From: Bacteroidota bacterium
Lineage (GTDB): Bacteria > Bacteroidota > Ignavibacteria > UBA10030 > UBA6906
DNA: 64,000 nucleotides
Assembly (NCBI GenBank): GCA_040756745.1
Contig: JBFLYO010000016.1
Location: 8,655-72,654 of the forward strand
Direction: 5' to 3'
Notes under the pieces: model-generated
What the model saw: the letters and a program-made list of their open reading frames with translations, nothing else
Database searches by the model: none
Told to the model about the DNA's origin: nothing
Translations under genes and position numbers: made by a program
Shown: positions 1,035 to 47,683 of the stretch, piece after piece
How positions within the stretch are numbered: position 1 is the first letter of the stretch
How the letters are laid out: each line of letters starts with the position of its first letter

Positions 1035-3728
1035 TCATTTGTGTCCGTCGGCCCATCGAATGCGGACCGTCATGATGCCGCACGCCGGGACGCGGAGCGG
1101 GATCGTTGTTCCGTCCTTCGTCTCCAGCACCCCGCGGGGCTCCTCGTTCAGCCCCGCGACCTCCGCCCGGGCGATGGGGTGGGCGAACCGGAGAATCCCT
1201 GCGACCTCGGCGGGTCCGGGATTATAGAGGCGAACGACCGCTCCCGCTCCCTCCTCAGGCTCTTTCAATGCGCTCAGAACGAGCAACCCTCCGCTCACGC
1301 TGCCGAACGAGAATTGCACCGGCTGTGCCGATGCGTGCTTCCGCCGAAAGGCCAGGAGCGGAAGATGGAAACGCTCACTCTCCCGGTGGATCAACTCTCC
1401 CCATGCCGGCGCATCGGGGGAATGTGGCAACACGGCGTACCGAAACGTGTACACGCCCTGGCATTGCGCCTCCGGCGTCTCGTTGTGCCACCCGGCTTTC
1501 CCGCCGGGACGCGTGATGAGATCGTCGCCTGCGAGCAGCCCGACGCACCGGAGCAGTGTGAGTGCGAGAGTCCCCTTTCTGTCCAACTTGAGTTCGTATT
1601 CGGGGAGTCCGTACGCAAAGAGCGTCAGCGCCCGCTGCGGCCCACGGACGGTGATAAACCGCTGCATGGGCGCCACTGCCGCGGGATGCTCGATCGTGAA
1701 CTTCCGGAGATCGTAGCTCTTCTGCTGTCTCTCAACGATACAGAACTGCGAATCGGCCTGCACGCGGTCCGTTTTCACTCCCACAGGGAAGAGCACACGC
1801 AGGCGATGGTCCTTCGCAGAATTCTCAACGGTAGTTGAGAACTCCACGGAGCGGGAGTATGGCGTGATCGACAACTCCGAAGTTATGTGGAGAAGGACCC
1901 GACGGGGGCTGCGGCTCTTCCGGTCGGGGGCCGCTGACGCCGGCACGCGCAGGGTCACCTCGACGCGCAGCGACGCACGCAGCGGGCCCTCCTCGATCCG
2001 CTGGATCTTCGCTTTTCCCACTTTCGAGAGCTGCGTCGAGTCCTGTTTGGGGTACGAATAGTTGTACTCATCCCCAACGTCCCCTGAATCCTCGAACACA
2101 TTGAGGCCGGAGTATTCTGTCCCTCTCAGTTTGTCGCGCACCGTCACTTCGCCGCGTCCGTTGACCTCCACGCGCAGAAACTCGTTCTCAAGGAAACGCG
2201 ATCCCGACGAGAGTCGCTGTGCGGGGTGGGCAAAACCTTTCTTTCGATCAATCCTCAGCCCCTTGAAACCAAGCGGAGGGATGTCGCGCGCATCGACCAG
2301 AAGCGTGAATGAGTCGGCCCAAGTCTGTTTCGGGTAGTTGAAGCGGTTGTAGGAGATGTCGTGTACCTCCTCCCGCCTCACGATCTGATACGGCACCTGG
2401 TTGCCGGCAGGATCGACGAGCGCAAAGCCAGCAGCACGCGGCAGCTTCGGCACGGTCTTTACGTCCGGGTTCAATCCTACGACGATGTCCTGCAAATAGA
2501 AGCGGGCCTCCGCTTCGGCGATCTCGGAGCGATGGAACGCCGACGGGTTATAGAAATAGAGGAATCGGTCATCCTTCGCCGCACGTTCGTCCTCGGGCAC
2601 CAACGCTCCCAGACTGAGATCGACCACCGAGTTCGCAATCTGATCCGACGCCGCGAATCGCGTCATCATCTCCCTGTGCACGGCGTCGATGCTGCAGCCG
2701 CAGATGCTGTCATGCGTGTGGTTCTGCATGAGCGTTCGCCAGGCCTTGCGGACGAGCGGGGCCTGGGACTTCAGTCCCATAGCCGTTGCCATCGCGCTCA
2801 GGGGCTCCGCGTAGCGCTGGAGAAGATTCTGCGATTTCCAGTTGGCCTGCTTGATATACATGCGGCTCGAATACACGCCGCCGAGCACAGCGAAGGCGTA
2901 ACGATAGCCGAAGCGCAGCTCGCCGTTGATTTCGGCCAGCCCGCTGGCCTCCCCTTTTACCGCATCGACGTACTGCTGGACGGAGCTGTGGAGGAAGCGT
3001 CCCTGGAAGTTCTTCCGGAGCAGCTCGAGGGTTTCGGGCAGTCGGGGATCGGGCCAGTGGTGGTCCCCGCCGTTCATCAGGAGCCGGTGGCTGGTCGTCG
3101 CGCGCGCGTCCAGCTCCGCCTTCAGTGCGTCGAACCGACGGACGATCTCCTCGTCGGGTTCATCGTGGAAATACCCGGCGCTGTAGCCGTTGCTATAGAG
3201 GTGCACCATCAGCACTCTAGACCCGTCGGGCGATCGCCACCAGTATTCCGATGTCTTCTGATCCGCCTCTCCACCGAAGCCGCGATAGACAAGCGCCGAA
3301 TCGATGCCGAACCCACGAAGGACTGCGGGCATCATTGCGATGTGCCCGAACGAATCGGGGATATACCCAACGGCCATTCCTCCGCCGAATGCACGGGCCA
3401 TCCGCGTACCGACGAGAAGGTTCCGGACGGTCGCTTCCGCGCTGACGAGGAACTCATCGGGGAGGATGTACCACGGCCCCGTCGCCAATCGCCCCGTAGC
3501 AATCAGCTTTCGCAATTCGTGCTCCCGCTCGGGACGGACCGCAAGATAATCCTCCAGCACGATCGTCTGCCCGTCGAGCGTGAAGCACCGGAAATTCTTC
3601 TCCCGCTGCAGCAGATCGAGGAGATCGTCCACCATGTTCACCAGCATGGCGCGGAACTGCTGGAAGCTCTTGTACCATTCCCGGTCCCAGTGGGAATGCG
3701 AGACAATATGATAGGTCGGCGGTGTCAT
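1035..3728 (-). CDS. glycoside hydrolase family 38 alpha-mannosidase
   Basis: ORF 1035..3959 trimmed to Met78 (MTPPTYHIVSHSHWDREW...). The HSHWDREW motif is the GH38 N-terminal metal/catalytic signature, and the rest of the ~900 aa is GH38-like (DSFGH, large central and C-terminal beta domains). ATG at 3726-3728 overlaps the upstream PfkB stop (ATGA). The upstream 77 aa of the ORF are Arg/Cys-rich and overlap the preceding gene. Confidence 0.85.
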   Translation of the reverse strand: MTPPTYHIVSHSHWDREWYKSFQQFRAMLVNMVDDLLDLLQREKNFRCFTLDGQTIVLEDYLAVRPEREHELRKLIATGRLATGPWYILPDEFLVSAEATVRNLLVGTRMARAFGGGMAVGYIPDSFGHIAMMPAVLRGFGIDSALVYRGFGGEADQKTSEYWWRSPDGSRVLMVHLYSNGYSAGYFHDEPDEEIVRRFDALKAELDARATTSHRLLMNGGDHHWPDPRLPETLELLRKNFQGRFLHSSVQQYVDAVKGEASGLAEINGELRFGYRYAFAVLGGVYSSRMYIKQANWKSQNLLQRYAEPLSAMATAMGLKSQAPLVRKAWRTLMQNHTHDSICGCSIDAVHREMMTRFAASDQIANSVVDLSLGALVPEDERAAKDDRFLYFYNPSAFHRSEIAEAEARFYLQDIVVGLNPDVKTVPKLPRAAGFALVDPAGNQVPYQIVRREEVHDISYNRFNYPKQTWADSFTLLVDARDIPPLGFKGLRIDRKKGFAHPAQRLSSGSRFLENEFLRVEVNGRGEVTVRDKLRGTEYSGLNVFEDSGDVGDEYNYSYPKQDSTQLSKVGKAKIQRIEEGPLRASLRVEVTLRVPASAAPDRKSRSPRRVLLHITSELSITPYSRSVEFSTTVENSAKDHRLRVLFPVGVKTDRVQADSQFCIVERQQKSYDLRKFTIEHPAAVAPMQRFITVRGPQRALTLFAYGLPEYELKLDRKGTLALTLLRCVGLLAGDDLITRPGGKAGWHNETPEAQCQGVYTFRYAVLPHSPDAPAWGELIHRESERFHLPLLAFRRKHASAQPVQFSFGSVSGGLLVLSALKEPEEGAGAVVRLYNPGPAEVAGILRFAHPIARAEVAGLNEEPRGVLETKDGTTIPLRVPACGIMTVRIRWADGHK

Positions 3729-4687
3729 GAGTGCAGATATGTATGCAGCGGCCGGACGGCAGTGGAAGCACCCACCGCGGTCAGACTCGAAGCGGCGACG
3801 GCGTTGCCGAGCCGGGCTGCCGCAAATGGATCCAGAGTATTCAACATTCCTGCGAGGAATCCGGCAATGAACGCATCCCCCGCACCGGTCGCATCGACCA
3901 CCCGGCGCACGCGGCGAACGGCGATCCGCTTCGTCTTCCCACTCACCGACACGATACAACCGTCTGCGCCAAGCTTCACGCCAACCACACCGGTAGCGCC
4001 TGCGGCACGGAAGGCCCGGATCATGTCCGCCGGCTCTTTCTTCCCCGTCATCGCTTTCGCCTCGTCATAGCTCGGGATGAAGAAATCCACGTGCGGGAGA
4101 AACGACGCAAGCGTTGCATCATCTTTCCGGGGATTGCCTGCAGTATCAAGAAGGATTGCCATTCCGGTCTTCTGCTTCACTGCACGGAAGAGACGGCCAA
4201 GATGCTCGTCGCACTCCGGAAGGAGGCCAAAGTATCCGAACGCCAGGATCCTCCCCCGCCGGACGATGTCCATCTGTTCCAGCACATCCTCGACGCGGAA
4301 GTTTTCCATGCATCCTCGGGCATGGAAAAAAGTCCGCTCGCCTGACCGGTCCACCGCGACTACCGTTGCAGAAGTCTGCTTCCTGTCGTCAACGACAAGC
4401 CCCCCGATCATGATGCCACTCATCTCCAGCCGGCTGCGGACAAATCCCCCGATGCTGTCGTTCCCCACCCGGCTTACCGCGCCGACCTTGAACCCGAGCT
4501 GGACGAGGTCGATGCCGACGTTGGGGACGTTCCCCCCTGTCGTCATGGTAATGGTCTCCACGGGCTCCAGTCCTCCGCGTTTCGGCGGACGGCGCAGGTT
4601 CAGGGGGCGCCCGATGATATCCACAACCGACAACCCCGCAACAATCACATCCAGGTCACGCAGCGGAGAAAGGGGAGGGATGTTCAT
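3725..4687 (-). CDS. PfkB-family carbohydrate kinase (ribokinase-like)
   Basis: 320 aa. N-terminal GG box (VIVAGLSVVDII) and C-terminal DATGAGDAF anion-hole motif are typical of the ribokinase/PfkB family. Confidence 0.85.
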   Translation of the reverse strand: MNIPPLSPLRDLDVIVAGLSVVDIIGRPLNLRRPPKRGGLEPVETITMTTGGNVPNVGIDLVQLGFKVGAVSRVGNDSIGGFVRSRLEMSGIMIGGLVVDDRKQTSATVVAVDRSGERTFFHARGCMENFRVEDVLEQMDIVRRGRILAFGYFGLLPECDEHLGRLFRAVKQKTGMAILLDTAGNPRKDDATLASFLPHVDFFIPSYDEAKAMTGKKEPADMIRAFRAAGATGVVGVKLGADGCIVSVSGKTKRIAVRRVRRVVDATGAGDAFIAGFLAGMLNTLDPFAAARLGNAVAASSLTAVGASTAVRPLHTYLHS

Positions 4688-4688
4688 A

Positions 4689-6512
4689 TCATTCGGTCAC
4701 CATGAGTGATTTGATATCCAGGATCCGTTTCGCGTTGCCGTGCCGCATTGTGAGCATCTGGCTCCCCACCTCCGCATTCAGGAACGGCCCGTCGAACAGC
4801 TTCGTCTTTGTGAGGTCGACCGGCCTGCCGTTCAGCCACCGGCCATCCGGGAATGAGAATTTCATCCGGTCCCCTCCCAGCGTTGTGTAGGTGACGCTCA
4901 CGGATCCCGGCTTCAGCACCGCAACCGGCGTCCGCTTTCGAAGTGCTGCGCAGAACGAGGTGAACGACCCGATTTCCTCTTTTGAGCGAACTTCGATCAC
5001 GTATCCGTTGTGTGGCTTGTAGCTGCGAAACCTCCAGTTGCCTTCCCGGGCACTGCGCGGAATGTCCGTCGGTCTGCCGATCGAGTTCTTCACCTGACCG
5101 GTGGCGATTCCCTCCTCGCTCCATTCTCCCGGCTGAAGCGGATACCATCCGACGTACGTATCGCCGGCTTTGCAGAGGATCCAGCCCGATGGGTCGAGGA
5201 TGCGCTCCTCCAGATTGCGCGGGAAGAATCCGTCGATATGCTCCGTCGTCGTCCCCGGCGGGATGTCATACAGCACCAGCAGCGTATTCTTGTGCTGGAA
5301 CGTCCGCTCGTACGGTGATCCGCCAGTCCACTTGTCCCGATTGTTGTATGTGCTCTTGGAGCCAACCACGTCGGCCATCAGCGGTTTGATCTCCTCCGGG
5401 AAAAACATCCCGAGCTCCAGGCTTGACCAGTACGGATGGAGGCCGAAGATCGTCGTGTAGGGCCGCCCGTAGGTGTACCGCACTCCCCACGTGTGCTGTT
5501 GGATCGGCTGGAGTATTCCTCCCTGCAATGATCCGATGCCGTAGTCCTTTGTGACGTATGTGTATTTGTACACAGGAGGGTTCTTATCCGTGCCGAACCT
5601 GATGACGTTTCTGACCCGCTTCCGTTCCCGGTGGACGTAGGGCCTCGAGCGGTCGGTCGCAATATCATAGATGATCTTCGGCATGCGGTACTCGCCAAGA
5701 GCCGGGAGAAGCGCCCAGACGGACTGCGACGGCTCCCCGGTTCCAAAGTAGAGGTAAGCGAACGCCGATGCGCCCGAAAGCAGCGGCTTGTACACCGCCG
5801 GCTGATAGATCCGGCTAAACCCTCCGAGGTACTGTCCATCAAGATGCTCTGCGGCGAAGTCAGCCAGCAGGTAATCCATCATCATGGTACCCCGCTGTTT
5901 CATTGCGGCATCCTGCGCGAAATCGGCTAGGAGCGACATCGAAACGACGTACTCGGGGAAGTAATCCGGCGAGTCGAACTCCCCCTGCCCGATCGTCGTC
6001 GTGATCGTGATCCAGTGGATCAGATATTCTTTTGCCTCCTCCCTATTCTCATCGGAGCTCTTGCCGTTATACCATTCGGATCCCGGCAGGCCGGGCCACT
6101 GTTCTGCCGCAAGATAGAGCGTGGAGTAATACATCGCCCAGTGGTTCTCGGTATCTCCGCGGTATGGGGCGTAGGTCTTCCACGCGTTGCGCACGACCGC
6201 TCGGGTCTCGGGGGACATCACGTCTTTGCCGTGCAGATACGCGCCGATGCATGGGAACATCCAAAACATGTCGCCCCGCGGCTCCCGCAGCATTGCGGAG
6301 AAGATACTGTCCGCCGTCCGGATGTCAGCGCGGTGGGCGTACCTGGCTGCGGCAGCATAATAGCCGCCGGTCAGCGACGTGTCGTATGCCGATGACAGGT
6401 AACGGACTCGCTGCGCGAATCCTTCAAGATACTTCTCGCGCTCACTCTGGCCGGCATTGAGACCGGAGGATACCGTGACGAGGGCAATTGCGACGGCGAG
6501 TGCGTTTCTCAT
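4689..6512 (-). CDS. secreted hypothetical protein, paralog A1 (possible polysaccharide-lyase-like fold)
   Basis: 607 aa with a signal peptide (MRNALAVAIALVTVSSGLNAG). It is clearly paralogous to ORF 7554..9341, sharing YRGDTENHW, GQGEFDSP, RVRNVIRFG, NPPVYKY and QGGILQPIQQHTW blocks. The helix-rich N-terminal half and the adjacent N-H-x-W motif loosely resemble PL15/PL17/heparinase-type lyases; this is speculative. Confidence 0.6.
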   Translation of the reverse strand: MRNALAVAIALVTVSSGLNAGQSEREKYLEGFAQRVRYLSSAYDTSLTGGYYAAAARYAHRADIRTADSIFSAMLREPRGDMFWMFPCIGAYLHGKDVMSPETRAVVRNAWKTYAPYRGDTENHWAMYYSTLYLAAEQWPGLPGSEWYNGKSSDENREEAKEYLIHWITITTTIGQGEFDSPDYFPEYVVSMSLLADFAQDAAMKQRGTMMMDYLLADFAAEHLDGQYLGGFSRIYQPAVYKPLLSGASAFAYLYFGTGEPSQSVWALLPALGEYRMPKIIYDIATDRSRPYVHRERKRVRNVIRFGTDKNPPVYKYTYVTKDYGIGSLQGGILQPIQQHTWGVRYTYGRPYTTIFGLHPYWSSLELGMFFPEEIKPLMADVVGSKSTYNNRDKWTGGSPYERTFQHKNTLLVLYDIPPGTTTEHIDGFFPRNLEERILDPSGWILCKAGDTYVGWYPLQPGEWSEEGIATGQVKNSIGRPTDIPRSAREGNWRFRSYKPHNGYVIEVRSKEEIGSFTSFCAALRKRTPVAVLKPGSVSVTYTTLGGDRMKFSFPDGRWLNGRPVDLTKTKLFDGPFLNAEVGSQMLTMRHGNAKRILDIKSLMVTE

Positions 6513-6522
6513 GTTCTTCCGA

Positions 6523-7557
6523 TCAAAAAGGTTGAATCACCATGCTCCAGACCTCCGACCCTTCGAGCCCGATGCAGCGCCATGGCTCCCCATCATAGGA
6601 TTCGAAAACGCCCCCCCACATCGTTCCGGCGAACACTCGCCTGCCGTCCGTGGGGTCGACCGCTATCGCGTGGATATTCAGTTGTGTGAGTCCGTCGTTT
6701 ATACGCATCCAGCTCCGCGCGCCATCCGTTGATCGGTACACGCCCGTGATATATCCCCCTGCGTACACGGTGTCCGGATGGTTCGGATCGAATGTCACTG
6801 CATAGAAGGTCGGGTGATCCATGCCCGCTTCGCTTCTGTCCCAGCTCTTCCCTCCGTTGCGCGACACGTAAACGCCGAATTCCTCGGTCCCGGCAATCAG
6901 GACTGATGGATTCGTCGGGTGTTGCGCGACAACGCGCACGCCGGGAACGCTGAGTGCCGAATGAGTCCAGCGGATCCCCCCGTTGCTGCTCTCATACAAT
7001 CCCCCTTCGGTGGCACAGTACACTCTCCCCCGCGTAAACCGGTCGGGGAGTACGCATGTCACAAACTTCTCCTGTAGCCCCGCATTCATCTCGTTCCACG
7101 TCGCGCAGCCATCCGTCGATTTGAACACGCCGTACGCGGTCGCGCAATAGACTGTCCGGAAGTCGTGCGGATCCGGAGCAACGCCGAGCACCTCGGTGAT
7201 GTTCCAGCCGGTGGTGATTTTCCAGGAGGAGCCGCCATCAGTGGACTTGTGGACCCCATTGCCGGATGCAACATAGATTGTCTTGCCTGAGTCGTTTGGC
7301 GGCACGGCGACTCCGAACGCGCGGATGTTGACCGCTCCCGTATGCTCCCAGGCGGAGTCCCCTGCGGTGTACCGGTAAAAGACGCCCGTCTGTGGGTTTG
7401 CAGCGCCGACGACGAAGAGCTTTGTCGCGACAACGGATACATACAGCGTGGAGCGCTGGGAGAGCAAGGGCGCAGAGAGGAACAGCGTCAGAGCAAGGAG
7501 GAGAGTGAGATTGAGATTAAGATTGCGATTGAGGAGCAAAGGTCTCATCACGATCAC
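6523..7557 (-). CDS. BNR/Asp-box repeat beta-propeller protein (Ycf48/sortilin-like), paralog B1
   Basis: 344 aa with about six S-x-D-x-G-x-x-W Asp-box repeats (STDGGSSW, STDGCATW, SSNGGIRW, SRNGGKSW, STDGARSW, SYDGEPW). Signal peptide present. ATG at 7557 overlaps the upstream stop (ATGA). Paralog of 9350..10348. Confidence 0.65.
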   Translation of the reverse strand: MIVMRPLLLNRNLNLNLTLLLALTLFLSAPLLSQRSTLYVSVVATKLFVVGAANPQTGVFYRYTAGDSAWEHTGAVNIRAFGVAVPPNDSGKTIYVASGNGVHKSTDGGSSWKITTGWNITEVLGVAPDPHDFRTVYCATAYGVFKSTDGCATWNEMNAGLQEKFVTCVLPDRFTRGRVYCATEGGLYESSNGGIRWTHSALSVPGVRVVAQHPTNPSVLIAGTEEFGVYVSRNGGKSWDRSEAGMDHPTFYAVTFDPNHPDTVYAGGYITGVYRSTDGARSWMRINDGLTQLNIHAIAVDPTDGRRVFAGTMWGGVFESYDGEPWRCIGLEGSEVWSMVIQPF

Positions 7558-9341
7558 TTCTCGTGAATTGTCACTGTGTTGAAGTCGAGCACACGGGTGA
7601 GCCCGCCGGCAGTGAGTGTGATGACGCCGCTCTTGAGCGTGCTGTTGATGAAGGGGCCCCGGTAAAACCCGTATGTGCTAAAGGAGATGGGATGGCCATT
7701 CAGCAGCCGGGCGCCGTCGAACTGGAATTCCATCCTGTCGCGATGGCGGGTCGTGTATAAGACTGCCGGCCGACCCCCGGTCAGTGAGAAGCTGGGGACA
7801 GATTTCTTCAGCTTCGCGCAAAATGTGGCAAACGAGGCATCTTCTGCCGCAGAGCCCGCTTCGAGCACGATGCCGTTCTTCAGTTCATGGCTGCGCCACC
7901 GCCAGTTGTCACCCTCCCTGATCCACTCGTATTTTTTCAGGGGGAAGAATCCCACGTACGTCTCGCCTGCACGGCAGAAGATCCAGCCCGACGGATCGGT
8001 CGTCCGTTCGTCGAGATTGCCCGGGAAGAAACCATCGATATGCTGCTGCAATGCCGCCGGCGCAATATTGTACAACACAATGATCGCGTTCCTGTGCTGA
8101 AACGTCTGTTCGTACGGCGAGCTCGAGTTCCATTTGTCCGGGCTTGTATACACCTTATGGTAGCGGTCCACTTCACCGGAGAGAAACTTGATCTCCTCCG
8201 GGAAGAACATCGCCAGCTCCCGTCCACTGTAGAACGGGTGGAGCGTGAAGATGGTATTGTTCGGTTTACCGGAGACAAAGGTGACGTCCCAGGTATGCTG
8301 CTGGATCGGCTGGAGGATCCCCCCCTGCAGTGACCCGAGCGCGTAGTTCGAGGTCATGTAGAGATATTTATAGACGGGAGGGTTGACTTGCTTTCCGAAC
8401 CGGATGATGTTCCGTACCCGTTTTGTTTCGTAGTGGACGTACGGCTTCGACCTGTCGAGCGCGATCCGCTCGATCACAGGGGGAAGCCGGTAGCTGCTGA
8501 GCGCGCCGAAGACTGACTCCCACGATCCGCGGTAACGGGGGCGGAAGCGCGCGTCGTCCCACCGCTCCTCTGCCGGTTCCCCGAAGTAGAGCCAGGTAAC
8601 GCGGGTCATCGGCGCACCGAGTGGGTTGATGATGTCCTCAGGATAGTCCCTGCTATGTCCCCCGCAGTAGTTGCCCATCAGGTGATCCACGGCCACGTCC
8701 GCGAAGAGGAGATCGAGGGTCATCTGTGCCCGACGTTTCATGACCGTGTCGGCAGCGAAGTCATACAGCACCAGCAACGGTGCGATGAAGACTGTCATGT
8801 AGGTGGGCGAATCGAATTCCCCCTGGCCGATCGTCGCCGTCGTCATCATCCACCGGGTGAGCCATTCTTCCGCCTCACGGAAATTCTCCGTCGAGCTCCG
8901 TCCATTGAACCACCGTGTGCCGTCCTCGCCCGGCCACGTCTGCGCCGCAAGGTAGATGCCGCTGTAATAGGTGACCCAATGGTTCTCCGTATCGCCGCGG
9001 TACATCGTCCGCAGCCGGTAGGCATCGCGTACCTTGCGGTGCAGCGAATCGGGAAGATGGCTCCGGGAATGGAGATAGGTCCCGATGAGGGTGTAGGAGT
9101 AGAAATTGCCGCCCACCGCCTTATCAATCGTCATAGAATCGAGCATCCGGTAGGCGGTGGCGGTGTCGCGACGCGTCGCCAGCTTTGCTGCAATGGAATA
9201 GAAGCTCCGCTCCTGTTCCCCGCTCACCACGTCGAGCAGCCGCCTGCACCGCGCCTCAGACCCGTCGGCGCCGACCGCGGTACCGGATGCGGCAGTAACG
9301 ATGAACAACACTAGGTATACAATTTTTAACTTACCATCCTT
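7554..9341 (-). CDS. secreted hypothetical protein, paralog A2
   Basis: ORF 7554..9410 trimmed to Met24 (MKDGKLKIVYLVLFIVTAASGTAVGA, a canonical signal peptide). Strong homology to 4689..6512 along the whole length. Confidence 0.6.
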   Translation of the reverse strand, partial: KDGKLKIVYLVLFIVTAASGTAVGADGSEARCRRLLDVVSGEQERSFYSIAAKLATRRDTATAYRMLDSMTIDKAVGGNFYSYTLIGTYLHSRSHLPDSLHRKVRDAYRLRTMYRGDTENHWVTYYSGIYLAAQTWPGEDGTRWFNGRSSTENFREAEEWLTRWMMTTATIGQGEFDSPTYMTVFIAPLLVLYDFAADTVMKRRAQMTLDLLFADVAVDHLMGNYCGGHSRDYPEDIINPLGAPMTRVTWLYFGEPAEERWDDARFRPRYRGSWESVFGALSSYRLPPVIERIALDRSKPYVHYETKRVRNIIRFGKQVNPPVYKYLYMTSNYALGSLQGGILQPIQQHTWDVTFVSGKPNNTIFTLHPFYSGRELAMFFPEEIKFLSGEVDRYHKVYTSPDKWNSSSPYEQTFQHRNAIIVLYNIAPAALQQHIDGFFPGNLDERTTDPSGWIFCRAGETYVGFFPLKKYEWIREGDNWRWRSHELKNGIVLEAGSAAEDASFATFCAKLKKSVPSFSLTGGRPAVLYTTRHRDRMEFQFDGARLLNGHPISFSTYGFYRGPFINSTLKSGVITLTAGGLTRVLDFNTVTIHEK

Positions 9342-9349
9342 CATTCGTA

Positions 9350-10348
9350 TCACTCCACCCTCACCGAGAGCCCCCATACCTGGGCGTCTTCCTGGCTGTT
9401 GAATTCCCAATGAGCACCGCCGTCACGACTCGCAAACAGCCCACCGTTCAGCGTGCCCGCGAAGACCACGGAAGGATTTGAGGGGAGAACAACGAGCGCA
9501 TGGACGTCCCGGTTCGTGAGCCCCTCGGAACATTGCTCCCAGTGCCCCCCTCCGTCCTTCGTCCGGTAGACCCCGCCAGCGAACGTTCCCGCGTAGACGG
9601 TGTGCGGGTCGGAAGGGTCGACCGCAAGCGCATAAACGGTCCTATCGTCCAGTCCTGCGGACCGTTGGCTCCAGTTCTTCCCACCATCCTTCGACAGAAA
9701 CACGCCGCTCTCCTCCGTCCCGGCCCAGATAATCCGCTCGTTCCGAGGGTCCTTCACAAGGACGCGGATCTCTTTTCCCCGAAGTCCGGATTGGCGCCAG
9801 GATATCCCGCCGTCCGCGCTCCGGAAGACGCCGGTCTCCGCCGCAGCAAGAAGTACATTACGCTCTCCGTCAACCCACACGACGTCCGAACAGAACCGGT
9901 GCTGCACCCCCGCCGACGTAGTCCTCCAGGTCTCGCCGCCGTCGCTCGTGACGATGGCGCCGTATGCCGTCGCAGCGGCCACAAGTCTGGGATCGCGAGG
10001 GTTGACCTTGACTTTCAGGACCTCCGTGACGTCCCACCCCGTGGTGATTCGCCAGGTCACCCCGCTGTCCGTAGAGCGCAGAACTCCGTTCCCGCACGCC
10101 GACCAGATCACGCCGTTCGATCCCGCTTCGGCGTAAAACGTGCGGATGTACTCCTCCCAGCCCCGATGGACCCACGTCGTCCCATGGTCGGAGCTGACGA
10201 AGAGCCCCACAGGAGGATTGTCGCTTGCTGCGAGGCGATGCTTCCGGGAGTTGAGGACCGACATGTAGAGAGTCTCCCGTTGCGCGAGGGCAAACTCGAA
10301 CGCCATTGCACAAGAGAGAAGCAGAGTGATGAGCCTAGAGGTCCACAT
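9350..10348 (-). CDS. BNR/Asp-box repeat beta-propeller protein, paralog B2
   Basis: ORF 9350..10414 trimmed to Met23 (MWTSRLITLLLSCAMAFEFALAQ signal peptide). Asp-box repeats STDSGVTW, TSDGGETW, SADGGISW, SKDGGKNW, TKDGGGHW, SRDGGAHW. Paralog of 6523..7557. Confidence 0.6.
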   Translation of the reverse strand: MWTSRLITLLLSCAMAFEFALAQRETLYMSVLNSRKHRLAASDNPPVGLFVSSDHGTTWVHRGWEEYIRTFYAEAGSNGVIWSACGNGVLRSTDSGVTWRITTGWDVTEVLKVKVNPRDPRLVAAATAYGAIVTSDGGETWRTTSAGVQHRFCSDVVWVDGERNVLLAAAETGVFRSADGGISWRQSGLRGKEIRVLVKDPRNERIIWAGTEESGVFLSKDGGKNWSQRSAGLDDRTVYALAVDPSDPHTVYAGTFAGGVYRTKDGGGHWEQCSEGLTNRDVHALVVLPSNPSVVFAGTLNGGLFASRDGGAHWEFNSQEDAQVWGLSVRVE

Positions 10349-12698
10349 CGATCCCCCGCGTGAGAGCAGTGCCGTCAAATCTTCCCAGCGATTTCCCGTT
10401 GACAACGACCGCATAGGTAATGTTGCCCGCGCCCCCGAATTTTACCTTCACCTTCCGTGAAACATTGACGTTGTCAAAAAGCGTGACACTGATCTTCTCA
10501 CCCGACACCGTGACGTTCGTAATCCTGCAGCCGTCTATTCCCGCACCCCAGCTGCCGTTCAGGTCGACGAAGGCGTCACCGTATTTGCCGGCAATCAGGT
10601 GAATGGAGACTACAGAGCTGCCGGTTCCCCAATGCAATCCCGTCACACCGGCGAGTTGATCATATGCGCCGTGGGCATAATTCTCTGCCGTCCTTGGCGA
10701 TTGCGGCGATTCAAACAGAGAAAACATCGACCGCAGCGCCGCCACGCTCCGTTCCAAGTATTCGCGCCGCCCTGTCAGTTCGTAATATTTCATCAGCGTC
10801 ATGGCGAAGTACCCCTGCCGTGAATCGCTCCACTCCCCGTCGGTGTTCTGCACCCCGAACCCGCCGAAGAGCTGACAGGAAAGCCATTGTGGGCTCCAGA
10901 CCTGCTGATAGAGGCAGAGATAGTCAAGGATGGCGCTGCCCGCTTCACGGTATCGTTCGTCCTTCGTCAGCTCGTACAGGCTCGCGCACGCCTCCGCAGC
11001 CATTTGCATTGAGAGGGTGTTTTGCGGCGGCTGATGCGTGACTGAATCGAAGAAGTCGACCGGTTTCTGCGAACAGGAGAAAAACGTTTCAAAGTCGTAC
11101 CAGCGCTGATGCGGCTCGATCTCCGTGAGGATGTATCTCATCGCTCGCTCTGCAGCGTCACGGTAGCGAGAATCACCGGTTGCGTTTGCAAGCTCAGAGA
11201 GCAGGAGGGCTGCACCGGCAGTTTCGCCGTTCTCGTCGCGCAACACAGGGGAGGGCTCCCCGGTTGCCGGATCGTACCAGGAGGGGATTACTCCGGTGGA
11301 GAGTTGGTGAGCTATGAGAAAGCCTCCAATCTCCTTCGCATAGTCGAGCAGTTCCTTGCCCCGTTGCGGCACCCGATCGCGCCATCGCAGGACCCAGTAC
11401 GCGGTCCACGCATTGTGGAACATCGGCAGCAGCCGGCCATTCTCGATCCCGCCCCAGCCATGGTCTGCCACCCAATGGCCGCCAGAGCTGTCGACATAGA
11501 AGATCGTCGGCCGAAGCCCCGTGCCTTTGGGCGCGAGGAGTGCGAGATTCAACACACGTTCTGCACGCTGGGCAAGGGCCGCATCCCCGTGTTCGCGTCC
11601 GTACAGATGCATTCCATACGCCGTGCGAAGAGCGTTGAACCAGACGTTGAACCAGCAGTCGTTGTCGGCCGCCTTCGGCAGGTTGTTGCTCCATGCCAGC
11701 CGCGCCTGGCGCAACAGAGTTACCGGCTTCCCCTCGTACACCGTGTCCAGCGCGACGGAGGGCATGAATTCATGCCAGGCCTTGTGGATGTAAGAGGCAA
11801 ATGGTTCGGCCTGAGGATTCACGGCCTTCTGGAAGTCGGGTTCGCCGTATTTCTCCCAGAGGAACCGGACGATCTCCCGATAGGCCTTTTTCTCCGGTGC
11901 GCCGGCAGTGAGGTAGACGAAGTAGCCGTACCCCATGCCTCCCGGTGCGATGTGCAGCGTCGCGGTATCGGCGAGCTCATAGTACACGTGCGCTTTCTTC
12001 CGTTTCCAGTGCATCAACCCGAACGAGATGAGCGGTCGCCGGAGTCCTTTCACCTGCAGGTCTGCCCCCGCCCGGATCGGACGTCCTTTCCCATCGATCG
12101 AGGAGAGATCCGGAACGATAGCCCCTGCAACGGTCCCGGTCTGGAGGATGAAGGCAGGGGAGCGGAACGAGTGATCGGCAATGACCTCATCCGCCTCCGG
12201 TCTCAGTGCCGGTGTGAACACAAACTCGGGAGTGCCGGACCGAGTCTGCGGAATAAAGGAATAGGTGGAAAGGAGCGAGGAAACGTCGCGCGACGTCTGA
12301 AACTTCATCGTTACAGCCACGCGTGCAAACCGTGAGCCCTCCTCGAGCCCGATCGTCTTGATAAGCGTGTCCCCTGCGACCGTCCCGCGAAGCTCCAGGC
12401 GCCTGTGCATGGGGGCTCCGAGCGCGGAGGCCTCGGTGAACCGGATCGCCTGCTTCCCGGCGGCCGATCCGATGGTTTGCGCCGCGCGAATCTCGTTCCC
12501 CCCTTCGAACACAAATACCCAATCGCCCCCGCGCCGTGCGTACCAGCGCTCGACGTACTCCCCTTCCTCGCGGACGAGGACAACACGGACAAGCCCATTG
12601 TCGAGCCAGATGTCGCTGTCTGCCTGACGTTGCGCATCCGCGCTCGCTGCACCATCCATGGCAATCAGGAGGATGCTCGTGTACCGGAACGCGATCAC
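10335..12698 (-). CDS. large secreted protein with probable (alpha/alpha)6 glycoside-hydrolase-like region
   Basis: ORF 10335..13094 (919 aa) has a 145-aa N-terminal extension overlapping the upstream gene. The proposed start is the GTG at 12696-12698, a GTGA overlap with the upstream stop, giving M-IAFRYTSILLIAMDGAASA/DAQ, a good signal peptide. An alternative start is the ATG at 12659. The C-terminal half contains helix-pair motifs typical of six-hairpin glycosidases (AGAALLLSELANATGDSRYRDAAERAMRYI, WYDFETFF). Confidence 0.45.
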   Translation of the reverse strand: MIAFRYTSILLIAMDGAASADAQRQADSDIWLDNGLVRVVLVREEGEYVERWYARRGGDWVFVFEGGNEIRAAQTIGSAAGKQAIRFTEASALGAPMHRRLELRGTVAGDTLIKTIGLEEGSRFARVAVTMKFQTSRDVSSLLSTYSFIPQTRSGTPEFVFTPALRPEADEVIADHSFRSPAFILQTGTVAGAIVPDLSSIDGKGRPIRAGADLQVKGLRRPLISFGLMHWKRKKAHVYYELADTATLHIAPGGMGYGYFVYLTAGAPEKKAYREIVRFLWEKYGEPDFQKAVNPQAEPFASYIHKAWHEFMPSVALDTVYEGKPVTLLRQARLAWSNNLPKAADNDCWFNVWFNALRTAYGMHLYGREHGDAALAQRAERVLNLALLAPKGTGLRPTIFYVDSSGGHWVADHGWGGIENGRLLPMFHNAWTAYWVLRWRDRVPQRGKELLDYAKEIGGFLIAHQLSTGVIPSWYDPATGEPSPVLRDENGETAGAALLLSELANATGDSRYRDAAERAMRYILTEIEPHQRWYDFETFFSCSQKPVDFFDSVTHQPPQNTLSMQMAAEACASLYELTKDERYREAGSAILDYLCLYQQVWSPQWLSCQLFGGFGVQNTDGEWSDSRQGYFAMTLMKYYELTGRREYLERSVAALRSMFSLFESPQSPRTAENYAHGAYDQLAGVTGLHWGTGSSVVSIHLIAGKYGDAFVDLNGSWGAGIDGCRITNVTVSGEKISVTLFDNVNVSRKVKVKFGGAGNITYAVVVNGKSLGRFDGTALTRGIDVDL

Positions 12699-14314
12699 CA
12701 CCGTACCCGCTTCAGGATCTTCGCCATATTGCGGCCGAACATGTCTTTCTTCTCTTCCGTCGTGCAATGCGTGTACGCCATCCATCCGAACTGCGGGATC
12801 GGGTCGCGCATCGGTTGATCGGTCCCGAACAGCACCCGCTGCGCCCCGACATGCTTCACCATGTATTCGATGACACCGAGCGTCACGGCCGTCAGCGTGA
12901 TCTCCAGGGCGATATTCGGAAACTTGAGCGCCGCCTCGATTCCCTGGCGCGCGGTGGCATATGACGAGCCGCAGTGGGCGATGATGAACATGATCTCCGG
13001 GTAGCGGGGTGCGATCTCGTTGATCTCCTGCGTGAAATTCGGGGAGGGATGCATGAGCGCATATGCCCTCATCCTGTTCCCGTATTCGAACCACAGGGCC
13101 CAGGCCGGATCATTGTAGGGGATGCCGGTGCGCGGATTGTACGGCTTGATCCCTCCCATCCGGTAGGTCTGGTGCACTTTCTTCAGTTCGCGCGGCCAGT
13201 CCTTCACGTATTGCGGCTGCAATGTCGCATATCCCTCATAGTAGCGGGGAAAATCCTTCATCGCCTTCCTGACGATCTCATTGCCGTCCTCGTAATCAGC
13301 CCAGACGCCGATCCATGCACTGATACACTGCTTATCGATGCCCATCGTGCGCGCCCGTTCCACCATGCTCGCCGCGTCCGAGTGCGGCTGATGCATGAAC
13401 CCCGTCCCGACCGCCCCATCGTGCGAAATGTGCGCATGCGCGTCGATCACCAGCATGTCGCGCAGCGGCCTTCCCTGCTTCGCGAGCGCGAGGATGGGCT
13501 CCTCCTTCTTGTGCGGATAGGGAGGCGGCAGCTTTTCGATCCGGAGCAGACGGGCGAGGTTTCCCCCGGCGATCATTGCCTTGTCGTCGTCGTTCAATGT
13601 GCAGTAATCGACGAACGCTTTTGCCGCCCCCGGGGATTTTTCGAGCGCCCCGGTCCCGAAGAGGATCCTGTCGGCGCCGAACCAGCCGGCAAACACCTCC
13701 ATCGCGCGGTTCCCCTGGTGGCTGGAGAGCTCCAGATACAGGTTCCGATGCTTCGTCATGAGCGTGTGCAGAAACCGGGTGGAATCCCAGCGCGAACCCT
13801 GGAGGAGGACGCGCAGGTCGGGGTGCCGTGTGAGGACGGCATCCAGATCCGAGAGGAGTACCTGGTTCACCGGCTCCATCACTTCGACGCCGTACATAAA
13901 CCCGCCGTCCACCAGCAGCAGGATCTCTTCCCGCTCGAGCTCGGAGAGCAGATCGCCGCAGGTGTCCTCGTTGAAGAAATAATGATGCGTCTTTGGATAC
14001 ATCTTGACGGCGCGGATCTGATGCGAACGCATTTCCTCAACGACCTCCCGGGGGGGCGGCATTTCGCCTGTATGGTGGGGCATGACTGACCAGACACCCA
14101 ACAGCCGCGGGCTCTTCTTCAGCTCATGAACGAGCTTCCGGTTGCCGTACGCCGGGTCGTACTCCTTGCCAAGCCCGTGAGTGATGAGCGCGCCCTGGAT
14201 CCCGCACCAGGCCATCTCATCGAGCAACACCTCGGTTTCCCAGGGTGTCTCGACATCCTTCGGCCCCCGGCGGCCCACCATTGCGTTGCAGTCGATGTAC
14301 ACTCTCTCGGGCAT
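12695..14314 (-). CDS. tandem amidohydrolase-2 (metal-dependent TIM-barrel hydrolase) domain protein
   Basis: ORF 12695..14473 trimmed to Met54 (MPERVYIDCNAMVG), 4 nt after the upstream stop. The second half carries the VIDAHAHIS amidohydrolase_2 metal-binding motif. The first half has the analogous IDCNAMVG start, so it is an internally duplicated domain. Confidence 0.6.
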   Translation of the reverse strand: MPERVYIDCNAMVGRRGPKDVETPWETEVLLDEMAWCGIQGALITHGLGKEYDPAYGNRKLVHELKKSPRLLGVWSVMPHHTGEMPPPREVVEEMRSHQIRAVKMYPKTHHYFFNEDTCGDLLSELEREEILLLVDGGFMYGVEVMEPVNQVLLSDLDAVLTRHPDLRVLLQGSRWDSTRFLHTLMTKHRNLYLELSSHQGNRAMEVFAGWFGADRILFGTGALEKSPGAAKAFVDYCTLNDDDKAMIAGGNLARLLRIEKLPPPYPHKKEEPILALAKQGRPLRDMLVIDAHAHISHDGAVGTGFMHQPHSDAASMVERARTMGIDKQCISAWIGVWADYEDGNEIVRKAMKDFPRYYEGYATLQPQYVKDWPRELKKVHQTYRMGGIKPYNPRTGIPYNDPAWALWFEYGNRMRAYALMHPSPNFTQEINEIAPRYPEIMFIIAHCGSSYATARQGIEAALKFPNIALEITLTAVTLGVIEYMVKHVGAQRVLFGTDQPMRDPIPQFGWMAYTHCTTEEKKDMFGRNMAKILKRVRW

Positions 14315-14318
14315 GAGC

Positions 14319-15575
14319 TCACCACCAGAATGGTTTGACCGAGTCGCGCTCTTTCGGTTCAGCTTCGAGGGCACGCTGCAATGCCCTGCGGGATTTTTCG
14401 AGGGCTTCGTCGATGTCGGCCGGTTTGTGCGAATAGGAAATGAACCAGCGCGGGTTGGCAAATATGCCCTCACGATACAGCTCGCGGTGCCAGAGAAACT
14501 CCAGGCGTGCGTGGTAGTCGGGATCGCGGTGAACGAACTTCAGAAACGGGGCAGCAGGGAGTCCCGCGGCGTGTCCCTCGACGCCCAGATCCTTCACCAT
14601 CATGTCGAACCCCGCCATCAATCGCTCCCCCATGGCCCGCAGATGGTCGTGCACGTTCTCACGCATCATGATATCGAGCGTGGCCGCCGCGGCAGCAAGT
14701 GATAGGGTCTCCCCCGCATATGTTGTGGTCATCCTGAACGAGTTAAGCGTCTCCATCAACTGACGCTTCCCGCAATAGGCGGAGAGAGGGAACCCGTTGG
14801 CCAGTGCCTTGGCGTAGCTGACGAGATCGGCATCGACGCCGAAGAACTCCTGTGCCCCGCCCCGTGCAAGCCGGAAGCCCGTCAGCACTTCGTCAAGAAT
14901 AAGAACGATGCCCTCTTTCTGTGTGAGGGCGCGAAGAGTCCTGATGTACGTACCGCTCGTGTCCTCATTGAAATCGTACGGGACGGAAATGACGCAGGCA
15001 AGACGGTCGGCGTATTGCTTGATGAGACGTTCCGCGGCGTCGCAGTCTCCCCACGGAATGGATTTCACGTAGTCGCGCAGGACTTCGGGCACGCCGTTGC
15101 CGGGACTCCCCTCCGCCGAAAACCAGTCGGGATAGCCGTGGTACCCGCTGATCAGCATCATGTCACGCTTCGACCATGCGCGCGCGATTCTCACGTTGCA
15201 CATGTTTGCATCTTCGCCCGTCTTCATGAACCGGACCATCTCCGCGTTGGGGACGATCCGGTTGATCCGCTTTGCAACCTCCAGCTCGATCGGGCTTGCC
15301 ATGCTGAAGAGCACCCCCTTTGCAAGCTGCTCACGCACCGCGTTGTCCACTTCGTCGTAGCAGTAGCCCAGTGTCACCGGCCCGAGGGCCAGGCGGAAAT
15401 CGACGTACTCCTTCCCTTCCATGTCCCAGAGCCGGCACCCCTTCCCGCGGACGATGAACTTCGGCATCGTCTCCTGGAAGAACGGGTACGGACGTTTGGC
15501 GTTGGTCTGAGTTCCCCACGGGATCAGGCGGAGCGCTTCCTCAAAGTGGCGGTCGGACGGCTTCATGGTCTTCAA
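14319..15575 (-). CDS. class III (glutamate-1-semialdehyde aminomutase-like) PLP-dependent aminotransferase
   Basis: 418 aa. LILDEVLTGFRLARGGAQEFFGV and the surrounding fold are typical of the HemL/class-III aminotransferase family. ATG overlaps the upstream stop (ATGA). Confidence 0.8.
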   Translation of the reverse strand: MKTMKPSDRHFEEALRLIPWGTQTNAKRPYPFFQETMPKFIVRGKGCRLWDMEGKEYVDFRLALGPVTLGYCYDEVDNAVREQLAKGVLFSMASPIELEVAKRINRIVPNAEMVRFMKTGEDANMCNVRIARAWSKRDMMLISGYHGYPDWFSAEGSPGNGVPEVLRDYVKSIPWGDCDAAERLIKQYADRLACVISVPYDFNEDTSGTYIRTLRALTQKEGIVLILDEVLTGFRLARGGAQEFFGVDADLVSYAKALANGFPLSAYCGKRQLMETLNSFRMTTTYAGETLSLAAAAATLDIMMRENVHDHLRAMGERLMAGFDMMVKDLGVEGHAAGLPAAPFLKFVHRDPDYHARLEFLWHRELYREGIFANPRWFISYSHKPADIDEALEKSRRALQRALEAEPKERDSVKPFWW

Positions 15576-17590
15576 CCGATGACGATCTTCGGAACAGGTG
15601 TCCGGGGATCAATTGAGACGTCGATCTGCCGACCGTTATGGCTCCCCTTCACATTCCATGTCTCCTTCTCCCGCGTCACGGAAAGGGTTCCATGCTCGCC
15701 TCCCGTCTTCTGCGCGGTGCACACCGTGAGGATCATGTGCTCATTTGCCGGAGCGGATTCCGCTTCGGCATAGGGATGAATCCCCTTGTCGGGCGGCAGG
15801 TTATGCGAGGCCGTGCGAACCGTGACGGCCTGCGATCCCGAGATTGCCGCCTGGAGATTTGCAAGGGGGCGTTGAACCCCGAACGAAGCCCCCTCGGCGT
15901 TCACCGTTCCTTTGCCGTCTGAATTGTCAACCTGGAACCGGAGCTGGACCGGCAGCGGGTCTCCCTGTAGCTGCACACGGTCGAAGAGGAGCAGCACATC
16001 GGGCTTCAGGAACACGAGAGTTCTCTGAACCAGCGCGATGTTGTTGTTGACCAGACGATACGCGTCGGTGGCATCGCTCGTTACCGTCATCGCCTTCGTC
16101 GAATGCGAATAGTCCAGAATGCGCGCCTCGGCCCACGATGCGTTGGTCCCTTCGTGGCCGTTGTGATACTGGTGTCCTTTGCCATCGATGAGTACCGCCG
16201 TATGCGCCGACGTGAGCCGGAGGATCCAGTGTGGGTCGGTATACGCGTACGCAGCCCTGTACGGGTCGTGGAACAGCCGTTCGCCGTATGCCTTGAAGAT
16301 GATGCTGTTCCGATCGGCATGTTCGTGGTTCGCGGGTCCGCCGCTGCGCAGCGCGACGAGGCCGTCGGTGGGCTTCCAGCCGCTGCGGGAGACCACCCAG
16401 TCATCGGAGAATCGCACGTCCAACTGATCGGGGCCGGGCTTGCGCACCGGGAGGTCCGGGTCGAGCCAGATAATAGAGAAGTGGCTGGTGAGCTGACCGA
16501 CCTCCGTCGCGACGTACTGGGCGATGGAGTCTTTGAACCGCCTGGCGACCCATGCCGCAACTGCGACATCCCCCATGTTCCAGGCATCACCGAAGTTCAC
16601 GCAATCGTTTGGACGATCCGGCAGCGGCATGGCCATGCTGAGGCCGTACCGGACGGTGCCGGGATAATTGATGATGGTGCTCAGATCGGTCCTCTGCGTG
16701 CGCCGCACGGCTTCGACCAGCAGCGTGAGGTGCGACGCGGTATATCCCCAGTACCCCACCCCTTCGTCATAGGCACCATCCGGACCGAACATCGGCGCGA
16801 ACGCCTTCGCGCTCTGGACTGCCATATCGATCCATCGCTCGGCCTGGGGGTGCTTGCCACGGAGGAGACAGCCGGCCAGTCCGAGGCCGGCAATCGGAAT
16901 GACCTTGAGGTTGGTTGCATTCAGGATGAACGGCCACCGGCTCAGGTCGAAGCGGTACGGATAATCATCTTCCGGGTCAAACCCCCATCCGCGCACCCTG
17001 TCGGGATATTTCATGCCATACAGGGTGCGGTAGCAGGCCGGGGCTCCTTTCTCTGCGATCTGCTTCTCGATCTCGGCGGCGGTCTCTGTGTTCAGGAGCG
17101 GGCCGAGCCATTCGCGGGCGCATGACATGGCGATCGTCGCCTCGGGTGCGCGCTGAAGCCCGATCACCTCCTCTCCCCCCTCAAGGAAGTAGTCCCACTT
17201 GGGATATTCGAGAATCTTGTTGGCGGCTGCGAGCGCGACCTCTCCCTGCTTCCGGTCTCCCGTCACCGCAAAGACGAACGATGTGCGTTCCAGGATCTGG
17301 CGCACCTGAAGCATGTCCTTGACGTGATTATTGAACCGGACGCTCTCGCGCAGGAACTTTGCATCGGCATCGAGGTTGGCGTTGACCAGGGACTGCCAGT
17401 AGGGGACGACGCGAGGATGCCTGACCGCCCTGCGAATCCTCGGGAGGTCCGAGGCATCGAAGAGCAGGCCCTTGACGCGGGGCGAGGGGTCTTCAGTCGG
17501 GATCAGCGCAGCACGTGCCCCGGAGGGGATGAGTGAGACGCCCGCAGCGATCCCGGTGGCGCGGAGGAATTCTCGTCTGGAAGGGGGCAT
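15572..17590 (-). CDS. heparinase II/III-like polysaccharide lyase family protein (Tat-exported)
   Basis: 672 aa. Twin-arginine signal MPPSRREFLRATGIAAGVSLIPSGARA. Helix-rich N-terminal toroid-like half. C-terminal half has the H-x-H-x-D motif (ANHEHADRNSIIF) typical of the Hepar_II_III domain. Confidence 0.6.
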   Translation of the reverse strand: MPPSRREFLRATGIAAGVSLIPSGARAALIPTEDPSPRVKGLLFDASDLPRIRRAVRHPRVVPYWQSLVNANLDADAKFLRESVRFNNHVKDMLQVRQILERTSFVFAVTGDRKQGEVALAAANKILEYPKWDYFLEGGEEVIGLQRAPEATIAMSCAREWLGPLLNTETAAEIEKQIAEKGAPACYRTLYGMKYPDRVRGWGFDPEDDYPYRFDLSRWPFILNATNLKVIPIAGLGLAGCLLRGKHPQAERWIDMAVQSAKAFAPMFGPDGAYDEGVGYWGYTASHLTLLVEAVRRTQRTDLSTIINYPGTVRYGLSMAMPLPDRPNDCVNFGDAWNMGDVAVAAWVARRFKDSIAQYVATEVGQLTSHFSIIWLDPDLPVRKPGPDQLDVRFSDDWVVSRSGWKPTDGLVALRSGGPANHEHADRNSIIFKAYGERLFHDPYRAAYAYTDPHWILRLTSAHTAVLIDGKGHQYHNGHEGTNASWAEARILDYSHSTKAMTVTSDATDAYRLVNNNIALVQRTLVFLKPDVLLLFDRVQLQGDPLPVQLRFQVDNSDGKGTVNAEGASFGVQRPLANLQAAISGSQAVTVRTASHNLPPDKGIHPYAEAESAPANEHMILTVCTAQKTGGEHGTLSVTREKETWNVKGSHNGRQIDVSIDPRTPVPKIVIG

Positions 17591-24155: not shown

Positions 24156-24167
24156 GCATGCACCTCC

Positions 24168-26228: not shown

Positions 26229-26278
26229 TGTTGCGTCCTTGCGTTGTCACGCAAAAAAGATGCCGCAGAACAGCCGTG

Positions 26279-41732: not shown

Positions 41733-41760
41733 AGGACTGTCCTCTATCATAGATGGTCAG

Positions 41761-47317: not shown

Positions 47318-47683
47318 ATCGTTCCTCCTTCGATCATGAATTGAGTAGGGTGGGTGGATGGATTGACGTGATGTAACGGATGCATCGTACACTCGTGCGG
47401 TCAGCGCGGCATGGCTTCCCGTCGGGGGAGACCGCATGCTGCGGTGACGGAATGCGAACAGGAATGAGAACTGAGTCTGGAACCTGTGCGAACGCCCGGG
47501 CAGGAGATATTCACCCGGCGTTCCACTAATAGAATGGTGTTTTATCACCGGAAAAATAGCACATTGCCGATGTTTTGTCAAGCGCTTTCTTTCCCCGGAG
47601 CGTTGCGGATGAACCGGGCATTCTCTACTTTACTCCCGACGCGCTGTGAAACCCGATTCCACTATTGAAATGAGTGAGGCAGG

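Follow-up and report, generated by a model that had tools for sequence, protein, structure and literature searches.

A duplicated gene pair encoding a secreted protein of predicted lyase-type fold and a BNR propeller in a Bacteroidota metagenome-assembled genome

In a 64,000-nucleotide stretch of contig JBFLYO010000016.1 (positions 8,655 to 72,654, forward strand, assembly GCA_040756745.1), referred to below as the window, two copies of a two-gene cassette have been identified. Each consists of a gene for a β-propeller with Asp-box (BNR) repeats followed by a gene for a secreted protein of about 600 residues, and all four genes are located on the minus strand in the transcription order propB, 600B, propA, 600A. 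The gene propB (9350-10348, 332 aa) is separated by 5 nt from 600B (7554-9344), while propA (6523-7557, 344 aa) lies directly upstream of 600A (4689-6512, 607 aa). The start of propA was placed at the GTG at 7557, and it may instead be the ATG at 7548. Sec-type export signals are found on all four products, in the form of a signal peptide on 600B and a signal-peptide-like N-terminus on the 600A open reading frame (ORF). The source is a Bacteroidota metagenome-assembled genome (MAG), in which the locus, tagged AB1428_08290 and AB1428_08300, is part of an 81.7-kb contig. The analysis described below indicates that the 600-aa protein is very probably a carbohydrate-active enzyme with a functional link to the propeller.

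The two 600-aa proteins are full-length paralogs, as a first-pass annotation of the sequence had proposed; they align from end to end with 44% identity (526 bits, BLASTP). Of the blocks listed there as common to both, YRGDTENHW, GQGEFDSP and QGGILQPIQQHTW occur in each protein, and RVRNVIRFG reads RVRNIIRFG in 600B. The start of 600B, given earlier as 9341, had to be moved to the ATG at 9344, which yields 596 aa, the length of a 100%-identical NCBI protein (P0121). The same annotation could not assign these proteins to any family, and the searches lead to the same result: no match was obtained in Pfam or NCBIfam at E≤0.1, and none among PDB sequences at E≤10, either with the single sequence or with a 47-sequence profile. 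The Pfam Hepar_II_III models do not match, and comparison with Pfam, NCBIfam and PDB gives no indication of membership in the Hepar_II_III, Lyase_8 or alginate-lyase families. A confident match to a characterised family, named in the first-pass annotation as one part of what would refute its proposal, did not occur. The family itself is large, with more than 1,600 homologs per paralog at 90% clustering, 1,195 representative clusters at E≤1e-3 when 1.84 billion representatives were searched exhaustively with phmmer, and at least 577 stretches matched in genomes sampled one per GTDB species. Its members fuse the 600 module to CBM9 (a carbohydrate-binding module, CBM), F5/8-type C (discoidin), CARDB, dockerin/cohesin, BACON, CHB_HEX_C and Fn3 domains, and also to 3-keto-disaccharide-hydrolase-like domains. 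Fusions of this modular kind are typical of enzymes that degrade glycans outside the cell, and they point to the 600 module being a carbohydrate-active enzyme.

The lyase-type fold at which the first-pass annotation had hinted is supported by the AlphaFold2 model of 600A (mean predicted local distance difference test score 84.7, predicted TM-score 0.87). The model comprises two domains: an N-terminal, all-helical α/α toroid at about residues 24-286 and a C-terminal β-sandwich at about residues 292-606. This predicted toroid-then-sandwich architecture is the one of the fold class formed by polysaccharide lyase (PL) families PL8, PL12, PL15, PL17, PL21, PL33, PL35 and PL39. All significant full-length Foldseek matches of the model are lyases, and the fold matches include chondroitinase AC and heparinase II. 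The best matches belong to the PL15/PL17/PL21/PL12 group (exoHep 6lja, Alg17c 4nei, Atu3025 3a0o and heparinase II 3e7j; E 7e-7 to 3e-5); the domain order is shared with these enzymes, but the TM-scores to the 600A model are only 0.32-0.40. The glycosaminoglycan lyases of PL35 (GAGase II/VII, 8khv/8khw; chondroitinase, 9o3q) are 8-12% identical to 600A in structural alignments and resemble the 600-aa proteins neither in sequence nor in profile. A heparinase II/III-like gene was correctly noted in the same operon (15572-17590, minus strand; Hepar_II_III_C, E 7e-11), its product carrying a twin-arginine (TAT) signal at the N-terminus MPPSRREFLRATG. No sequence relation between this true member of the heparinase II/III group and its 600-type neighbours was detected, neither BLASTP nor hhalign revealing significant similarity.

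Residue conservation has been determined in a deep alignment of 57 full-length members, 26-58% identical to 600A. Q406 is kept in all 57 sequences, E122 and E178 in 56, R234 and E402 in 55, Y184, K316 and Y415 in 54, and R288 in 53. Somewhat more variable are N123 (49/57), D180 (49/57, with Asn in seven others), H124 (48/57), H359 (45/57) and H340 (37/57, with Arg in 11 and Gln in eight). The complete set of candidate catalytic residues is present in both 600A and 600B, as well as in nine of the 12 propeller-fused forms in the alignment; the other three differ at D180 or H359 only. In the lyases of the fold class (PL35, PL12, PL15, PL17 and PL39) the catalytic triad begins with an Asn or His that acts as neutraliser; a Tyr follows 53-57 residues later, and a His another 130-166 residues beyond it (PMC12088678 Table 4). 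The corresponding distances in 600A are 60-61 residues from N123/H124 to Y184 and 156 residues from Y184 to H340. By conservation and spacing, N123/H124, Y184 and H340/H359 are candidates for this triad. The adjacent Asn-His pair is also found in exoHep (N336/H337) and in PL39 (N186/H187), while E122, E178, D180, E402 and Q406 are, in comparison with PL35, invariant extras specific to the 600 family. A conserved basic stretch (K298, R299, R301, R305) and the residues R234, R288 and K316 jointly suggest that the substrate is anionic. The overall residue pattern is consistent with β-elimination, of which it is not proof.

The annotation of a paralogous Asp-box/BNR propeller upstream of each 600-type gene is confirmed. 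PropA and propB are 41% identical (235 bits, E 6e-80, BLASTP); both match Sortilin-Vps10 and BNR Asp-box models (for propB, E 7e-20 and E 7e-13, respectively), and both are predicted to fold as seven-bladed propellers with S-x-D-x-G-x-x-W Asp-box repeats on a closed ring. Known single-domain or related BNR/Asp-box propellers of seven blades include Reut_B4987 (3b7f, a 'putative glycosyl hydrolase'), the domains of the glycoside hydrolase (GH) family GH74 xyloglucanases, Ycf48/PSII_BNR and F510_1955. In contrast to these, the window propellers score below the NCBIfam cut-offs for the F510_1955 family (NF045728; 108.5 and 139 bits against 175) and for Ycf48 (NF010237; 33.6 bits against 326), and are single rather than tandem as in GH74; no conserved catalytic residues were found in them. 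The name Ycf48-like assembly factor, given to the propeller by the automatic JGI annotation, has been rejected on account of that score, far below the cut-off, and of the genomic context, which is a secreted sugar-degradation block.

The organisation of related loci was compared in 79 GTDB-derived loci, which represent the closest relatives, mostly from Ignavibacteriota and Bacteroidota MAGs, and most of which share a block of 10-14 genes. Their ORFs were classed by phmmer against the window proteins, and 600-type genes with at least 1 kb of upstream sequence were counted. A same-strand propeller ORF is located directly upstream in 89 of the 106 genes so defined. In 16 of them no upstream propeller is present; several of these are second genes of 600-600 tandems or fragmented genes. 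Two propeller-fusion ORFs occur among the loci (L018 and L054), one of them within the 106. The lack of conserved adjacency that the first-pass annotation had named as the other part of a refutation was therefore not observed. The pair is also found outside the conserved block: alone beside a FecR-regulated TonB-dependent receptor (L053), twice in one locus with an SSF symporter after each copy (L077), and in KSB1 (L082). About half of the related loci possess a third propeller, so that two stand ahead of 600A and the ratio of propellers to 600-type genes is not strictly 1:1. This third class, about 35% identical to propA, lies between 600B and propA (for example L001 7897-8919 and L083 11782-12789, and in about half of L003-L067); in the window it was lost or never present.

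The strongest evidence for a specific pairing comes from fusion proteins. Among the best 150 cluster representatives of the 600 family, 28 have at least 700 aa. In 18 of these a BNR propeller at the N-terminus precedes the 600 module, which is also the order of the separate genes, and in one the propeller is C-terminal. The fusions are distributed over at least 19 separate 50%-identity clusters. Those with a complete N-terminus possess a single N-terminal signal peptide and none internally at the junction, and some junctions contain Pro/Ala-rich linkers. An origin of the fusions by frameshift or read-through has been rejected, given junctions free of an internal signal peptide and several linkers that look designed. 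Together with the adjacency in the related loci, the fusions in many deep clusters uphold the dedicated pairing proposed in the first-pass annotation. The word obligate, which was used there, does not hold: two loci (L064 and L065) encode two 600-type genes and no propeller, and some members without a BNR propeller carry CBM or dockerin modules. In a further locus lacking a BNR propeller (L059), the 600-type gene has directly upstream of it an ORF of 640 aa (7968-9887) whose matches to WD40-like propellers are weak; this ORF may be a non-homologous replacement of the propeller partner.

The duplication that produced the two cassettes is ancient. Whether 600A and 600B types are compared within a locus (median 45.7%) or between loci (45.3%), their identity is unchanged, while orthologs are 60-63% identical, and 600B forms an ortholog group of its own (60-77% identity). 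In every related locus with both copies, propB-type propellers accompany 600B-type genes and propA-type propellers accompany 600A-type genes. Equal identities and fixed pairings indicate a single duplication of the pair, as a unit, before these lineages diverged, in agreement with the cassette duplication first suggested for the window. A recent tandem duplication or gene conversion was rejected on the same ground, the equality of within-locus and between-locus identity. Both 600 copies have been retained with their conserved residues intact.

The following mechanism is proposed for the products of these genes. Each cassette would encode a two-part periplasmic carbohydrate-active enzyme, whose catalytic part, the 600-aa protein, most likely cleaves a uronic-acid-containing glycan by β-elimination. 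Asn123 and His124 would neutralise the carboxylate, Tyr184 together with His340 (or His359) would serve as acid and base, and the basic loop K298-R305 with R234, R288 and K316 would bind the anionic substrate. The propeller would be the dedicated partner, perhaps in a physical complex, more likely as a substrate-binding, capture or gating subunit than as a second enzyme, and would stand in for the CBM9, discoidin or BACON modules of other family members. Since both 600 copies keep all candidate catalytic residues, the two cassettes would probably differ in the linkage or chain length that they attack in the same acidic glycan. The putative periplasmic players are propB, 600B, propA, 600A, the product of a neighbouring gene of about 790 codons, and the TAT-exported heparinase-like enzyme. 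Small products would then be imported, for which nearby SSF symporters are candidates, and the cytoplasmic GH38 enzyme, PfkB kinase, oxidoreductase, isomerase, aminotransferase and amidohydrolase would finish catabolism. The model as a whole, a lyase-like enzyme with a propeller subunit, is judged to be evenly balanced between holding and failing. Its more specific form, in which the 600 module founds a new PL (or other carbohydrate-active enzyme) family, depends for activity on a dedicated non-catalytic seven-bladed BNR propeller and acts on an acidic mannose-containing glycan, is put forward tentatively.

Several observations weigh against this mechanism. H340 is replaced by Arg or Gln in 19 of the 57 deep members, and among the residues under the strictest conservation are four acidic ones (E122, E178, D180 and E402), which do not belong to the canonical lyase triad and would fit a hydrolase or a metal site as well. 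The profiles of the 600 family (57 sequences) and of the heparinase II/III-like family (17 sequences) are related by hhalign with a probability of only 0.3%; the non-significant path sets N123 and Y184 opposite a conserved Asn and Tyr of the heparinase-like family and was given no weight. Neither a GH88/GH105 unsaturated-uronyl hydrolase nor KduI/KduD has been identified in the window operon, and the neighbours that recur are α-mannosidases (GH38 and, in L064, GH47), enzymes active on neutral sugars. In addition, three loci (L064, L065 and L078) contain no BNR propeller at all, and the CBM- or dockerin-bearing 600 forms do without one, so the partner is not universally required.

A first alternative is that the 600-aa protein uses a lyase-like scaffold for another chemistry, as a glycoside hydrolase (for example of a mannoside-containing oligosaccharide) or a uronyl C5-epimerase, with the propeller partnership unchanged. 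This is considered rather unlikely. The hydrolases matched by the 600A model are aligned over the toroid of about 200 residues only, whereas every significant full-length match is a lyase; the order of toroid and sandwich and the N-H...Y...H spacing are as in the lyase class, and the conserved basic residues described above argue for an anionic substrate.

According to the second alternative, the propeller is an independent enzyme, either a BNR exo-glycosidase of GH74 or sialidase type or a propeller-type lyase, and both adjacency and fusion reflect sequential catalysis. For 3b7f no activity has been demonstrated, its assignment being a depositor annotation only. In 64 diverse propellers, 17 of them from fusions, the conserved columns are nearly all Asp-box or structural Gly, Trp, Ser and Asp; E122 and E184 of the propeller are the only other moderately conserved positions, and there is no invariant polar constellation. 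As GH74 enzymes require two tandem seven-bladed propellers, which form a cleft, and catalytic Asp residues, a single propeller of about 330 aa with no invariant acidic pair in the 64 homologs does not correspond to that family. One to two propellers per 600-type gene and the WD40-like substitute in L059 are likewise fitted more easily by binding or scaffolding. An enzymatic propeller is thus unlikely, and the predominance of scaffold positions among the conserved columns is read, with modest confidence, as a sign of a binding or scaffold role rather than catalysis. That adjacency is merely inherited synteny among related FCB-group genomes, with no specific functional relationship, is highly improbable: the compared loci are indeed close relatives that mostly retain the whole block, but the pair stands alone in unrelated contexts, its two types have kept their pairings since the ancient duplication, and the separate fusions with domain order equal to gene order largely refute such an explanation.

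The cassettes belong to a run of 14 co-directional genes, from 21269 to 1035, in which neighbours overlap or lie no more than about 10 nt apart wherever starts can be placed. In transcription order they encode an IclR regulator, a TIM-barrel protein, a DUF4432 protein, a GFO/IDH/MocA oxidoreductase, the heparinase-like protein, a class-III aminotransferase, an Amidohydro_2 protein, the 790-aa protein, propB, 600B, propA, 600A, a PfkB kinase and a GH38 α-mannosidase. A predicted operon of 21 kb is plausible from this common direction and tight spacing; in a promoter and terminator scan the counts, those of terminator-like sites included, were no higher than in shuffled sequence. None of the 14 genes encodes a SusC-like TonB-dependent transporter or a SusD-like lipoprotein, which sets the locus apart from a Bacteroidota SusC/SusD polysaccharide utilisation locus, and the closest TonB-dependent receptor in the window is at 44300-47581.

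The secreted protein of about 790 aa (10335-12701, minus strand) has a signal-like N-terminus and is encoded directly upstream of propB in most related loci. With sub-threshold GH76/GH47 (α/α)6 matches only, it looks like another carbohydrate-active enzyme family, probably of (α/α)6 type. Directly downstream of 600A, and in the same position in nearly all related loci, is the gene of a cytoplasmic PfkB-family sugar or sugar-acid kinase (3725-4687, minus strand; PfkB, E 7e-48; no signal peptide), whose top NCBIfam matches, 5-dehydro-2-deoxygluconokinase, ribokinase, fructokinase and KdgK, are all below cut-off. The last gene of the block (1035-3728, minus strand, start at 3728) encodes a cytoplasmic, MngB-like GH38 α-mannosidase with N-terminal, middle and C-terminal GH38 domains; it carries no signal peptide and reaches 555 bits against the mannosylglycerate hydrolase model of NCBIfam, below its cut-off. 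The GH38 gene recurs throughout the related loci.

The recurrence of GH38, the GH47 enzyme in L064 and the GH76/GH47-like matches of the 790-aa protein are a hint that the glycan contains α-mannose. A side chain of Man-GlcA type, as in xanthan-like exopolysaccharides, is one possibility, given little confidence in view of the lack of any observed GH88/GH105 or KduI/KduD genes. Xanthan side-chain degradation relies on a PL8 xanthan lyase, GH88 and GH38, whereas in the window operon no GH88 or PL8 was detected and the GH38 is the cytoplasmic, MngB-like form. In the propeller-less loci, the tandem 600-type genes are adjoined by a GH47 α-mannosidase (395 bits) and URO-D-like proteins (L064 6053-7576 and 13813-14958; L065 11738-12916), and a URO-D-like gene follows the block in another locus (L083 21410-21785).

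The fold class of the 600-aa protein is known; the 600 family, its residue set and its propeller partner correspond to no entry in Pfam, NCBIfam or PDB and to nothing in the literature retrieved, although the family bears all the hallmarks of a carbohydrate-active enzyme working outside the cell or in the periplasm. Literature searches on a propeller-plus-lyase system, on F510_1955 and on Ignavibacteria glycan loci found nothing relevant, which agrees with the first-pass view that the pairing had not been described. PL35 enzymes act alone, and the retrieved literature describes no propeller partner for them. By comparison with Pfam, NCBIfam and PDB, the 600 family is probably a new family at the CAZy level. 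It is widespread in uncultured Ignavibacteriota, Bacteroidota and KSB1 from soil, peat, groundwater and sediment, habitats whose glycan turnover has been little mapped. If an activity were assigned, thousands of 'hypothetical proteins' would gain an annotation, and such a family would probably be defined. The recurrent partnership, as gene pair or fusion, is a concrete case of a lyase-fold enzyme with a putative propeller accessory. If the proposed mechanism is true, it would represent a two-component carbohydrate-active enzyme of an undescribed kind, with the propeller separate in Ignavibacteriota and Bacteroidota and fused elsewhere, and the conserved block of 14 genes is suggestive of an entire catabolic pathway for a glycan possibly built from both uronate and mannose.

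Further features have been noted in the vicinity. The oxidoreductase, DUF4432 and xylose-isomerase-like TIM-barrel genes form a trio (17592-20493, minus strand) which recurs with the block in related loci; it resembles gene sets for oxidative (3-keto) glycoside cleavage. Within the Amidohydro_2 protein (12695-14314, minus strand, about 540 aa), which has no signal peptide, the C-terminal domain finds a second, weak match, which suggests a duplicated domain, tandem or degenerate. The region on the upstream side of the IclR gene (21394-30117, minus strand) contains genes for a RhaA-like isomerase, an FGGY kinase and a class-II aldolase/SDR fusion, a combination reminiscent of L-rhamnose catabolism; two adjacent SSF symporters follow on the same strand. 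Finally, four large minus-strand ORFs that have no Pfam match (31621-33852, 34124-35701, 37350-39518 and 41761-44289; 743, 525, 722 and 842 aa, respectively) are located near the TonB-dependent receptor and a PorV/FadL-like outer-membrane protein (40707-41750).

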